From assembly GCF_006345805.1 (NCBI RefSeq), contig NC_043009.1, positions 64,666,001 through 64,730,000 of the forward strand: 64,000 bases of DNA. The letters are read 5' to 3'. The stretch comes from Octopus sinensis. Lineage: Eukaryota. Of this stretch, positions 21,125 through 51,389 are shown in pieces; positions within the stretch are counted from its first letter, which is position 1; each line of letters opens with the position of its first letter. The translations under genes were made by a program, and so were the position numbers. The notes beneath the pieces were generated by a model. That model had not been told where the DNA came from, ran no database searches, and saw only the letters and a program-made list of their open reading frames with translations.

Positions 21125-21219
21125 TTTTACTTCTCACTGTATGTTTCTCAGTCGATGACGGCTGAGTTTTTTTGTGTCGTTGCGGTGAGGTTTATCTTCA
21201 GGCACATCTGAAGGGACAC
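21125..21219 (-). pseudogene. CENPC: Repeat exon R7, 95 nt with a 1-nt deletion (pseudo-exon or assembly indel)
   Basis: ttttccatcag|GT GTC CCT TCA GAT GTG CCT GAA GAT AAA -CC TCA CCG...AGT AAA A|gtaagt; one A short versus R4 (GAC AAA ACC). As assembled it reads into TGA. Confidence 0.75.
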
Positions 21220-49200: not shown

Positions 49201-51389
49201 TGTTTTGTCAAACCACTAAGTGAAAGAGGGGCAAACAATCTGGCGAAAGTAAAGAGAATGCACACCCGGAGGTTAGGGTTAGGGTTTTTGTAACACTGAA
49301 AACGGATGGTGTGCAAGTTCTTTACCTCTGGCAACAATCCAACACCAAGGGTTAAGCATTGAAACACACACACACACGTTATATATATATATAAAACGGA
49401 CTTTCACACAGCTTCTGTCCACCAAATCCTTTCACAAAGCATTGGTAGGTCCAGAGCTATAGCAGAAAACACTTGCCCAAGGTGACTTGTAGTGGAACCG
49501 AACTCGAAAGCATGCGGTTACAGGATCTTCCCTTGCTAAAACCGTATAGTTGTCAGCTTCGACCAAGCAAACTTATGATCAAAGTAGTCCACCCACGACC
49601 AAGCCCGATCTTTAGGGTTGCTTTAGAATCTGTCATCTAATCAAGAGGTAACACAATGGAGCAAGTAACGCGACATATATGAGACCCCTTTCTGCTGACT
49701 GGTACTGCCATCTCAGGAGAAATCAAAGCTTCATTGTTTGATTTAGTACTGAGATTGCACCAGACTAGAACTTGAATGAGGAAGGACTATTACGAAGGCC
49801 AAGGCGAATTTAGGACAGTTTTCAATAATAACTAAAAACCAAGTCCTCAACAGCGATCTTCTTGACGCTCTCAGCTACGTGGACGAGTACTTTGTCAAAC
49901 AAGTACTAAAACAGGAAGGCCTGTTACGAAGATCGCGGTGGATATAGGAGGGCAGTCCTCAATATTAACTTACACCAAGTCCTCAACAAACAGCCATCTT
50001 CGTAAAACTGTTAGCTTAGTAGACGAGTACTAAAACTGCACCAGACTAGATCTTGCACGCGAAAGGCAATTACGAGGACCATGGCGAATTTAGGAGGACA
50101 GTCATCAACAGCCATCTTCGTAACAACAATCAGCCTGGTGGACGAGTACTTTGGGGGGTGAAACGGATACCGAACAGACTGCGTACTTGTCAGTTATCCA
50201 CTACCATCTTCACTACTTGCAACACAATGGTGCTGTCTGACTGACCAAGATGCCAGAAACGTGAATCTGATCAACGAAATTCATTATGGTCATTTACATT
50301 TCGAATCGGAGTACCACCGAGGTCGACTCTAAAAGAATGACAAAATACCAAATTACCTACTGACGTGCATTTAAATTCCTATAATGCATTTTCCGATGTG
50401 AAAAGAATTACAAGAGAACGTTGGGGAAAGGTGTAATTTGACATCTATTTCTAACGGGTTGACTGGCCACGTCCAGGCTCCGTTGTCGGTTTTGTCTGTA
50501 AACATTGGTCTCGATTTACGCCTTAGAAATAGCGAAGAGAGTCTGTAAGCTATATACACACGCGCGCGCGCTACATCTGTGTGTGTAGGTATGTGTGTAT
50601 AAGTATGTCAACAGCGTTACACACTCGTCAAGGCATGTATGTATAACGTGTATACTAGAGTGCATATATAAGAATATATGCGTGCGTGTGTGTGTGTGTA
50701 CACATAACGTAATATATGATGTGTATGTGCACACTCATATATATATTATACACACACACACACACTTATATACATGTTACTGTGTGTACACAATGTATTA
50801 TATGTGTATGTGCACACGCATATATATATATATATACACACACACACTCATTCATGTGTGTGTGTGTACACATAACGTATTATATGAATGTGTATGTGCA
50901 CACGTATATATGTGTGTATATATATAGAGAGTCGATCTTTCGTCTCTAGTAGACCTTTCGCCAGATATATATATATACACATATACATGTGACAGTGTGT
51001 GTATATACACATAACGTATTATATGAATGTGTTTGTACACACGTATATATATATACACACATACATGTGTGTGTACACATGTATTATATGAATGTGTATG
51101 TGTACACGTATATATGTGTGTGTGTGTGTGTATATATATACACACACATACATGTGACAGTGTGTGTATGTGTATAGATGTATGAGTGTGTATATTCACA
51201 CATACATTATATAAATAAAGTGCGTTTAAAATTTAAAAACGTCATTACAACGTTATCCAAACGATTATACTCACACTTCCGACCGTGCCCAACCACTCTA
51301 CGCCTCCGCTTGTACTGTAACTCTCTTCTCTACAACTTTACCATAAAATATAAACAAATGAGACTCACAAACATTTACAATACCGCCAT
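21125..51389 (-). CDS. CENPC: Multi-exon gene, putative centromere protein C (CENP-C/Mif2-like); 3' part missing in this window
   Basis: Manually spliced exons with AG/GT boundaries and matching phases give one ORF: (MA)KWIMALSTAQIRTNLGKGILEGKRIRIDEDGFENFDDYFTETDSDDSDVEIVNHADNVKIVAVKPAADDDAKSSVSPLSLSNFPSRKRLSFPVES... The N-terminal I-R-I-D-E-D-G-F-E-N-F-D-D-Y-F resembles the Mif2/CENP-C N-terminal pattern (I.xDE.(G/S)xE.xDDFF, recalled), followed by long low-complexity acidic and basic sequence. Gene existence is well supported; the identity is inferred from one motif. Confidence 0.7.
23092..23515 (+). mobile_element. Non-autonomous Helitron
   Basis: A|TCtttatatataaaa 5' end, subterminal hairpin cccgagcaacgccggg, 3' CTAG|T. 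Confidence 0.75.
23532..23627 (-). CDS. CENPC: Repeat exon R6 (SVPSGLPENKSSPSKHKMSQPSPTAKQTSKSK)
   Basis: gtacctcag|GT GTA CCT TCA G...AGC AAA A|gtaagt; 96 nt (or 84 nt), phase 1-1. Confidence 0.85.
23903..24257. repeat. Inverted repeat (about 145-bp arms), Penelope-like
   Basis: 23903-24045 is approximately the reverse complement of 24112-24257. Confidence 0.8.
25078..25173 (-). CDS. CENPC: Repeat exon R5 (TVPSGVLKEKSSPLRHKKLRPSPIAKSTLKTK)
   Basis: ttttccccag|CA GTA...ACT AAA A|gtaagt; 96 nt (alternative acceptors give 93 or 84 nt), phase 1-1. Confidence 0.85.
26157..26240 (-). CDS. CENPC: Repeat exon R4 (SEAKDKTPPSRHKRPQPPLAAKHTLKSK)
   Basis: gtactctcag|GT GAA...AGT AAA A|gtaagt; 84 nt, phase 1-1. 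Confidence 0.86.
27002..27794. repeat. Direct repeat of about 190 bp
   Basis: 27002-27193 and 27605-27794 are near-identical. Confidence 0.85.
28258..28621 (-). mobile_element. SINE family A
   Basis: Near full-length match to 1648-2038. Confidence 0.85.
29256..29469. mobile_element. piggyBac-like MITE
   Basis: TTAA-CCCTTTCGTTAC ... GTAACGAAAGGG-TTAA; an oppositely oriented partial copy at about 14195-14381 is interrupted by a SINE. Confidence 0.8.
30544..30627 (-). CDS. CENPC: Repeat exon R3 (SVPQDKSSPSRYKKPPTTSPEKQTLRNK)
   Basis: ttctctcag|GT GTA...AAT AAA A|gtaagt; 84 nt, phase 1-1. Confidence 0.86.
31075..31320 (-). mobile_element. tRNA-derived SINE family D
   Basis: gagtggactggagcagtgtgaaatgaagtg...ccaggaattgaaaccac; related copies at about 18765-18880, 22265-22490 and 55190-55345. 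Confidence 0.7.
31380..32000 (+). mobile_element. Tandem SINE family B copies
   Basis: ggcggtgagctggcagaaacgttagc...ttctgagttcaaattcc...gtcgactttgcctttcatccttt, repeated here; similar copies at about 991-1180, 36715-36940, 42560-42915, 45658-45875, 51575-51846, 58525-58735 and 62088-62295. Confidence 0.8.
32036..32125 (-). CDS. CENPC: Repeat exon R2 (SVPQEKSSPLKRKKPQPSPTAKHTLNYKRE)
   Basis: ttccttcag|GT GTA...GAA A|gtaagt; 90 nt, phase 1-1. Confidence 0.87.
32665..32760 (-). CDS. CENPC: Repeat exon R1 (DVPSDVPKDKSSPLRHKKPQPSPTAKQTLKSK)
   Basis: ttttcttcag|AT GTA...AGT AAA A|gtgagt; 96 nt, phase 1-1. Confidence 0.87.
32912..33120 (-). CDS. CENPC: Exon 10 (FSASPEKIKESPRKMISAFGVHKPTVQTRYFDVFDTNLSLIEENEK...SAEKNK)
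   Basis: ttttcctgacag|C TTC AGC...AAT AAA G|gtttgt; 209 nt, phase 2 to 1; overlaps ORF 32886..33077 in frame. Confidence 0.88.
33791..33846 (-). CDS. CENPC: Exon 9 with NLS-like RKKRK (VLPEAVSTRKKRKMTVSE-S)
   Basis: ttctccacag|GTT TTG...GAA AG|gtaact; 56 nt, phase 0 to 2. Confidence 0.87.
33936..34149. mobile_element. Tc1/mariner-like MITE
   Basis: TA-cagggtggccccaaatg ... cttttgggccaccttg-TA. Confidence 0.6.
35205..35570 (-). mobile_element. SINE family A
   Basis: Diverged match to 1648-2038. Confidence 0.8.
35838..36029 (+). repeat. Inverted duplicate of exon 4 with its splice sites and adjacent intron 4
   Basis: ttttttttacag-actccgatgactctgaagtagaaactgtgaaccacactgacaatgtt-gtaagtatc... 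is the reverse complement of 43870-44052, with 3 substitutions in the 47-nt exon part. Confidence 0.92.
36161..36222 (-). CDS. CENPC: Exon 8, acidic (ENEDDEENEDDLENDNIKNED)
   Basis: ttgttttccag|AA AAT GAA...GAA GAT|gtaagt; 62 nt, phase 1 to 0. Confidence 0.88.
37083..37515 (-). mobile_element. SINE family C with (ATG)n tail
   Basis: catcatcgtttaa...catgctagcatgggttggacgg...ctggatgcccttcctaacgccaaccac; copies also at about 19800, 22540, 33425, 34280-34895 (opposite orientation), 38410, 41490, 43460, 46660-47095 (opposite orientation), 52425, 61520 and 62470. Confidence 0.8.
37868..38229 (-). CDS. CENPC: Exon 7 (VSYVQRVISKRGMKS...SSSKECQ)
   Basis: ttttgaag|G GTT TCA...TGT CAA G|gttttg; 362 nt, same frame as ORF 37521..38219, phase 2 to 1. 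Confidence 0.88.
39500..40620 (+). mobile_element. Penelope-like element 3' fragment
   Basis: DTLVSRHFRSTGHSLQHLSVFGL...RLRREQELIFSLRSYTPFGLN, typical of the C-terminus of PLE GIY-YIG endonucleases, then a pyrimidine-rich tail and ttgaagagcgtaggctcgaaacg. Confidence 0.7.
41169..41222 (-). CDS. CENPC: Exon 6 (LSFPVESMTDSCSNASE-E)
   Basis: tttatttgcag|A TTA TCA...GAA GA|gtaagt; 54 nt, phase 2 to 2. Confidence 0.85.
42399..42487 (-). CDS. CENPC: Exon 5 (KIVAVKPAADDDAKSSVSPLSLSNFPSRK-R)
   Basis: ttatttcag|AAA ATA...AAA AG|gtaagc; 89 nt, phase 0 to 2. Confidence 0.88.
43992..44038 (-). CDS. CENPC: Exon 4 (DSDDSDVEIVNHADNV)
   Basis: ttttttacag|AC TCC GAT...AAT GTT|gtaagt; 47 nt, phase 1 to 0. 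Confidence 0.88.
44838..45233 (-). mobile_element. SINE family A
   Basis: Full-length match to 1648-2038; an oppositely oriented copy lies at about 44125-44480. Confidence 0.85.
45395..45483 (-). CDS. CENPC: Exon 3, Mif2_N-like motif (NLGKGILEGKRIRIDEDGFENFDDYFTET)
   Basis: ttgttttcag|A AAC CTA...GAA ACT G|gtaacg; 89 nt, phase 2 to 1, no stops. Confidence 0.9.
47102..47374. mobile_element. hAT-like MITE (degenerate)
   Basis: cagtggttc ... gagaatcactg ends; a related left end lies at about 4492. Confidence 0.45.
47974..48011 (-). CDS. CENPC: Exon 2 (KWIMALSTAQIR-T)
   Basis: tctttttcag|AAATGGATCATGGCA...ATTAGAAC|gtaagt; ends phase 2, matching the next exon. Confidence 0.8.
49746..50150. repeat. 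Three degenerate tandem units of about 120-150 bp
   Basis: Each unit ends in GACGAGTACT; shared ttacga, tagga and tcaaca...cagc.atctt blocks. Confidence 0.7.
51384..51389 (-). CDS. CENPC: Putative exon 1 coding part (ATG GCG, MA), phase-0 donor
   Basis: Minus strand reads cattATGGCG|gtattg just downstream of CCAAT/GC boxes. Phase 0 joins in frame to exon 2 (AAA TGG ATC ATG). Alternative: a non-coding first exon using GTGAGT donors at 51368 or 51274, with the start at ATG 48002. Confidence 0.4.

Follow-up and report, generated by a model that had tools for sequence, protein, structure and literature searches.

CENP-C connects centromeres with the spindle-attachment machinery, and the CENP-C motif is the family's defining reader of the centromeric histone CENP-A. 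An initial annotation of a 64,000-nucleotide stretch of the Octopus sinensis genome (NC_043009.1, positions 64,666,001 to 64,730,000; the window) proposed that short exons could be joined here into a hidden gene for a CENP-C/Mif2-like protein. Does this gene belong to the family, and which parts of the canonical protein does it keep?

Exon structure and database identity

Fifteen minus-strand exons (E2–E10 and R1–R6) with AG acceptors and GT donors join into a single open frame as proposed, and in 12 of the 15 only one stop-free frame is possible. The joined frame runs for 545 codons before the first stop, which sits within a 16th exon, R7. The spliced 15-exon frame is identical to RefSeq XP_029644176.1 (Octopus sinensis) over 541 residues, the sole difference being 11 residues that stem from the alternative R6 acceptor at 23660. 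Since splice sites were picked by eye, this database identity is the stronger evidence for the exon chain, which is real. Exons 1–10 and neighboring features are:

51275..51389, minus strand: probable exon 1, largely non-coding, ends uncertain; the O. vulgaris model matches 51275–51334 at 85%, GTGAGT donors follow 51275 and 51369
47974..48011, minus strand: exon 2, start Met of the RefSeq isoforms at 48002
45395..45483, minus strand: exon 3, conserved CENP-C N-terminal motif (22.7 bits), putative Mis12-complex site
43992..44038, minus strand: exon 4, acidic
42399..42487, minus strand: exon 5, making a K/R-K/R-L-S-F motif together with exon 6
41169..41222, minus strand: exon 6
37868..38229, minus strand: exon 7, ISKRGM motif twice, 100% to XP_036364389.1
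36161..36222, minus strand: exon 8, acidic tract
35845..36011, plus strand: inverted 167-nt copy of exon 4 including splice sites (91%), within intron 8
33791..33846, minus strand: exon 9, RKKRK, possibly NLS-like
32912..33120, minus strand: exon 10

The exon 3 peptide, the acidic exon 8, RKKRK and the SP-rich region were all found as described initially. Other points had to be revised: the interval holds seven repeat exons instead of six, R7 breaking the frame, and the gene is not hidden, eight RefSeq isoforms named unc-89 or dao-5 having been retrieved, so that it is modelled but misnamed. These isoforms have their start at the Met of exon 2 and not at 51389, where the proposed ATG lies. For the first exon there are three possible donors, at 51275, 51369 and 51384; the O. 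vulgaris gene model agrees with a first exon ending at 51275.

The K/R-K/R-L-S-F motif also occurs in scallop CENP-C, and the ISKRGM motif is common to the orthologue P0033. Lying on the opposite strand, the exon 4 copy could not be spliced into the transcript. No tRNA was found in the window, and eight other ORFs of the window gave no Pfam family above cut-off.

Repeat exons and the frame break

Downstream of exon 10 the gene continues with a series of repeat exons:

32665..32760, minus strand: R1, phase 1-1 (repeat family D9)
32036..32125, minus strand: R2, skipped in 5 of 25 isoform models
30544..30627, minus strand: R3
26157..26240, minus strand: R4
25078..25173, minus strand: R5, cassette
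23532..23660, minus strand: R6, cassette, acceptors at 23627 and 23660
21125..21219, minus strand: R7, 95 nt, frameshift and stop in the assembly; the shifted frame yields the O. vulgaris R7 peptide
19423..19522: 100-N assembly gap, 1.6 kb beyond R7

Comparison with the O. vulgaris peptide shows that R7 lacks one base near 21190, following an A run. Each of the eight retrieved O. sinensis isoform models stops within the frame-shifted R7, as would be expected if the truncation were genuine and the species or individual made a cupin-less protein from this allele. These models, however, were built on that very assembly; 22 of 23 residues of the shifted frame agree with O. vulgaris R7, the base loss follows a run of A with the gap close by, and O. 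vulgaris isoform models can skip R7. We therefore regard a genuine truncation as very unlikely; the truncation is probably an assembly error, combining a one-base loss with a gap.

Together the eight Octopus repeat exons comprise 257 amino acids with a net charge of +43 and eight full CDK consensus sites; they are Ser/Pro-rich and variably spliced. The array sits just upstream of the cupin, in place of the CENP-C motif, and is not recognisable in P0033. A derivation of the repeats from the motif by decay is not supported, since 181 of 200 shuffles reach the best score (R8, 5.4).

The C-terminal cupin

Evidence for a cupin comes from orthologues, its exons being absent from the window, where tblastn with R8 and the cupin exons gave only cross-matches to R1–R7 and chance matches. 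The CENP-C-type cupin PF11699 ends the O. vulgaris and O. bimaculoides orthologues (41 bits, cut-off 29) and scores 34.5 bits in P0033. The four best PDB sequence matches are Cnp3, human CENP-C, chicken CENP-C and Mif2, though weak (E 0.004–0.65), and the best atlas clusters are Mif2/CENP-C (0.92 and 0.91). In a fold search the top-ranked structure was the chicken CENP-C cupin, with Z 17.0 and an rmsd of 1.4 across 100 residues; bacterial cupins lay just behind (Z 15–16), and the query model had itself been folded using a CENP-C alignment. The proposed homology to CENP-C/Mif2 is supported by PF11699 above cut-off in the orthologues and by the PDB matches. By analogy with PMC7333888, the Octopus cupin would form a homodimer.

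Taken at face value, the RefSeq names would make the gene a relative of unc-89 or dao-5. Database names alone speak for this; Pfam detects no unc-89/dao-5 domain, and the names would fit low-complexity K/S/P similarity. Given the CENP-C cupin in the orthologues, the Pfam and PDB results refute this identity, which we consider practically out of the question.

The cupin is strongly diverged: it is 14–32% identical to the CENP-C cupins of other animals, whose identity with one another is 31–65%. In the best tree it falls outside the other molluscs on a long branch, a mollusc clade not being rejected (p-AU 0.23). Long branch and low identity would suit a fast-evolving paralogue with a derived, e.g. 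meiotic or non-kinetochore, role and a canonical CENP-C elsewhere in the genome. Against this, to the 29 proteins found with a profile of motif plus cupin the cephalopods contributed only nine isoforms of the window gene, a weak result as no more than 8000 candidates were scored and a single other mollusc was returned. We judge a paralogue to be rather improbable and treat the gene as the probable Octopus CENP-C orthologue.

The N-terminal motif

Exon 3 had been said to resemble the Mif2 N-terminus. Using a profile built from nine non-cephalopod CENP-C proteins, invertebrate and fungal, exon 3 is the best match in the window with 22.7 bits among 3192 six-frame segments, the next scoring 5.2. 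The Octopus proteins score 19–21 bits, which none of 500 shuffles reach; the profile itself fails on 3/3 mammalian and 1/1 scallop CENP-C. The basic R-R-T-G cluster of other invertebrates is missing in Octopus. Pfam Mif2_N (PF15624) gave no match in Octopus proteins or exon peptides. Since PF15624 matches residues 105–239 of the fungal control and not its N-terminal motif, and fails on six of seven other CENP-C proteins, this negative says little. Exon 3 produced two chance matches in PDB, none to Mif2; residues 1–60 gave no usable atlas match and five single-exon peptides no Pfam family above cut-off. The resemblance thus stands for the motif profile of invertebrate and basidiomycete CENP-C, while Mif2_N and PDB contribute nothing to it. 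Binding of the Mis12 complex by CENP-C was shown in mammals and yeast (PMC5101189), the mammalian proteins being among those that the profile misses, which speaks against the assignment; the exon 3 motif is a putative Mis12-binding site.

Absence of the CENP-C motif

A full-length transcript had been expected to carry both a C-terminal cupin and the CENP-C motif, which is of the R..R....PL.[YW]W type and reads CENP-A nucleosomes. Full-length orthologues possess the first, and the second is missing from the full-length proteins; of the two-part refutation stated initially, one half has thus occurred. By regular expression, HMM and profile the motif was found in none of five Octopus or Octopus-related proteins versus 16 of 16 comparators, a figure biased upward because the profile used to collect these comparators itself contained the motif; no CENP-C motif HMM domain occurs in any of the five. 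With the ungapped motif profile they score 5–12, shuffle means being 8–12, whereas all 16 leave-one-out comparators reach 41–76. This absence is read from protein models and does not extend to the genomic stretch that separates R7 from the cupin. None of 16 cupin-bearing O. vulgaris isoforms contains a Trp downstream of the start Met, and only 139 residues follow R8, while the comparators' motif lies 167–395 residues from the C-terminus. The limpet CENP-C motif lacks its aromatic pair, therefore motif decay is not unique to cephalopods.

On this sequence evidence octopus CENP-C appears to have lost its canonical CENP-A-reading motif; the window gene is a CENP-C homologue, a motif-less variant and not a canonical member. 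Alternatively, the protein could be a functionally ordinary CENP-C, with CENP-A kept and read through an unrecognised module, either an unmodelled exon or the two ISKRGM copies of exon 7, which would then serve as an arginine anchor. ISKRGM occurs twice in 5/5 Octopus-related proteins and in 0/17 others, octopods have been described as having monocentric karyotypes (PMC5646656), and a published mollusc histone table (PMC12210499 Table S2) lists no CENP-A in 9 of 23 non-coleoids either, including a scallop with a motif-bearing CENP-C. However, all five proteins, drawn from annotations made independently and from one contig of transcript size, are motif-free, and the six frames of the window contain no CENP-C motif (best 5.4 bits). 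We consider an ordinary CENP-C unlikely.

A model of octopus CENP-C and its significance

From the observed gene structure, orthologue cupin, N-terminal homology, motif absence in protein models and repeat anatomy, we moderately favor an Octopus CENP-C orthologue without the canonical motif: a mostly disordered linker protein that would be dimerised through its cupin and would recruit the Mis12 complex through the N-terminal motif. Its chromatin end would no longer read the CENP-A tail. Instead, the eight basic Ser/Pro-rich repeats may hold chromatin by binding DNA; exon skipping would tune their number, phosphorylation by mitotic CDK might contribute to the tuning, and other inner-kinetochore partners would supply positioning. 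We infer that the protein is located at the kinetochore.

The same histone table lists CENP-A in none of five coleoids and in 14 of 23 other molluscs, Nautilus being one of the species with a listed CENP-A; 41 O. sinensis genes appear there simply as H3. A bolder and more tentative reading, possible though short of probable, is that coleoids (octopus, squid) lost CENP-A after the Nautilus split and assemble their kinetochores without it, on chromosomes that seem to be monocentric; the CENP-C motif would have been lost and, in Octopus, splice-tunable, CDK-regulated basic repeats would serve as chromatin anchor. We know of no monocentric animal lineage described as lacking CENP-A. In a search of freely accessible literature nothing was found on CENP-C in octopus or the CENP-C cupin in molluscs, nor, among the matches listed, on cephalopod kinetochores; on cephalopod centromeres and CENP-A one relevant paper came up. 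The main text of a 2026 centromere atlas mentions molluscs and cephalopods zero times, and the cuttlefish genome paper does not mention CENP.

The unc-89/dao-5 reference annotation, which masks a core kinetochore gene, is hereby corrected. The name alone is minor because the orthologues already carry cupin-based labels in UniRef. Motif loss matters more, since in insects it was taken as an independent indication that CenH3 is gone (PMC4359364). It opens up a testable possibility, an unusual way of marking centromeres in octopuses, and bears on whether cephalopods, whose genomes are rearranged, run CENP-A-independent centromeres on monocentric chromosomes. Even with CENP-A present, its recognition by CENP-C would need to work in a new way.

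Comparison with known systems

With CENP-C/Mif2/Cnp3 of animals and fungi the Octopus protein shares the conserved N-terminal motif, the long disordered middle and the C-terminal CENP-C-type cupin; it differs in the missing CENP-C motif, the divergence of the cupin and the tandem repeat exons preceding it. According to PMC4359364, the putative CenpC of dragonflies (Odonata) likewise retains the CenpC-type cupin while its motif has decayed, which goes with CenH3 loss. Dragonflies are holocentric and their CenH3 loss was shown, whereas octopods are described as monocentric and CENP-A loss in them is a conjecture. In Mucoromycotina, according to bioRxiv 10.1101/706580, monocentric chromosomes are possible without CENP-A; in the Mucorales CENP-C is wholly lost, unlike in Octopus, and these are fungi, not animals, whereas the Umbelopsidales, which did lose CENP-A, resemble Octopus in retaining CENP-C. 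Grass CENP-C (PMC549713) shows recurrent tandem duplication of short basic mid-gene exons (9–12), which are proposed to bind DNA. There the motif is kept and the cupin is missing; in Octopus the repeat unit is one phase 1-1 exon, CDK sites are present and inclusion varies.

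Gene structure in the window

With the minus-strand exons placed by their splice sites, one open frame runs through E2-E10 and the repeat exons R1-R6; of these 15 exons, 12 are free of stops in just one frame. The joined frame equals RefSeq XP_029644176.1 over 541 residues except for an 11-residue alternative acceptor, which bears out the 15-exon chain proposed in the initial annotation. The translation of exon 7 is 100% identical to Octopus sinensis XP_036364389.1. The ISKRGM motif of exon 7 (37868-38229) occurs twice in 5/5 Octopus-related proteins and in 0/17 others. Intron 8 contains a further exon copy:

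35845-36011, plus strand: inverted copy of exon 4, 91% identical, together with its two splice sites and adjoining repeat sequence

A seventh repeat exon, R7 (95 nt), carries a frame shift near 21190, and its shifted frame encodes the R7 peptide of O. vulgaris. All eight O. sinensis isoforms among those listed (15 of the 17 main-cluster members) end at this shift and bear the database names unc-89 or dao-5. Judged from the sequence, the shift is likely an assembly error. A gap of 100 N lies 1.6 kb beyond R7, and neither R8, the eighth repeat exon, nor the cupin exons were found in the window. The newer O. bimaculoides model XP_052828505.1 ends after exon 10 without a cupin and an older one of 718 residues is complete; this repeat-rich CENP-C gene is broken in more than one annotation.

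Directly upstream of the first exon lie two CCAAT boxes (51430, 51484), followed after another 650 bp by an ETS-like site (52132); together they could mark a cell-cycle or divergent promoter. Four ORF fragments (16128-16697, 53147-53578, 56245-56553, 62796-63155) presumably resemble LINE reverse-transcriptase ends; for two of them, Pfam returned no family above cut-off.

Cupin domain and CENP-C identity

O. vulgaris orthologues, 98% identical over exon 7, run on via R8 to the cupin PF11699 (41 bits, cut-off 29), which also ends the O. bimaculoides orthologue. Their UniRef label is already that of Mif2/CENP-C cupin proteins. Of the five matches in an unbiased PDB sequence search, all weak, the top four were to Cnp3, the human and chicken CENP-C proteins and Mif2, and an atlas search agreed with this identity. 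The O. bimaculoides C-terminus is modelled at pLDDT >85 from about residue 131, with the chicken CENP-C cupin as top fold match (Z 17.0, rmsd 1.4, 100 residues) against Z 15-16 for bacterial cupins; the match is partly circular, since the model was folded with a CENP-C alignment. The Octopus cupin is unusually diverged, with 14-32% identity to other animals compared to 31-65% among those animals. A cluster-representative search returned five proteins: O. vulgaris, the 956-residue orthologue P0033 (about 30% identical), limpet CENP-C, starfish CENP-C and a motif-bearing fragment. P0033, which could come from squid or Nautilus, groups with Octopus in the tree (100/99).

We scanned the truncated O. 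sinensis isoform X1 along with the O. vulgaris and O. bimaculoides proteins, P0033 and a second such orthologue, P0039, for the 24-residue CENP-C motif, the defining feature of the family (PMC549713). It was found in 0/5 proteins by regex, HMM or ungapped profile, best profile scores of 5-12 being at shuffle level. Leave-one-out comparators, themselves retrieved with a motif-bearing profile, scored 41-76 in 16/16 cases, an aromatic-less limpet motif included. In the Patella proteins P0034/P0044 the motif arginines are kept and the aromatic pair is gone. The six frames of the window likewise contain no motif; for the stretch from R7 to the cupin the scan covered protein models rather than genomic DNA. 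A Trp after the start Met occurs in 0/16 cupin-bearing O. vulgaris isoforms.

The proposed CENP-C/Mif2 identity is thus upheld by the orthologues' cupin and the PDB matches, but not by the motif, and since the motif test failed we file the gene as a motif-less variant rather than a canonical member. We are confident that it descends from CENP-C as a homologue, and its protein probably still works like CENP-C as a kinetochore linker; less probably, it could be a paralogue. Searches of the open-access literature found no paper on cephalopod CENP-C.

N-terminal motif of exon 3

A profile of the first 75 residues of nine echinoderm and fungal-type CENP-C proteins scored 19-21 bits in Octopus and 17 in P0033, equalled by 0/500 shuffles, and singled out exon 3 among 3192 six-frame segments. 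It recovered an annelid motif at 38 bits and missed three mammalian and one scallop CENP-C. The suggested Mif2-like motif stands on this profile but not on Pfam Mif2_N, which did not match the octopus protein and spans a different region. N-terminal CENP-C binds the Mis12 complex (PMC5101189); by analogy exon 3 would do the same.

CENP-A in coleoids

PMC12210499 surveys the genomes of 28 molluscs; CENP-A is labelled there in 14 species, Nautilus included, and in 0/5 coleoids, a gap on which the text consulted carries no comment. The difference from other molluscs reaches Fisher p 0.04, with four of the five coleoids being octopods, and misses are common in the survey because 9/23 other molluscs also have no entry. 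In dragonflies CenH3 loss goes with a cupin-only CenpC (PMC4359364), localised centromeres are described in octopod karyotypes (PMC5646656), and Mucor has monocentric chromosomes without CENP-A (bioRxiv 10.1101/706580). That coleoids lost CENP-A is a tentative reading, somewhat doubtful at present.

Repeat exons

R1-R7 measure 84-96 nt, share 67-82% pairwise identity and are of phase 1-1 except R7. Across 25 annotation-based isoform models the inclusion of R2, R5, R6 and R7 varies and that of R1, R3 and R4 does not. In O. vulgaris the eight-unit block comprises 257 residues with a net charge of +43 and eight full CDK consensus sites, suggesting that the repeats may bind DNA and could be under CDK control. 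P0033 contains a basic SP-rich stretch in which no clear repeats stand out. Upstream of the cupin, P0033 and P0039 carry two C4 zinc-finger-like W-x-C-x2-C-x10-C-x2-C motifs (about residues 712-775 of P0033), absent from Octopus and 17 other proteins scanned and spaced, we believe, like RanBP2-type zinc fingers. The repeat block sits where other CENP-Cs have the CENP-C motif, and the repeats are comparable to the duplicated basic exons described for grass CENP-C (PMC549713).
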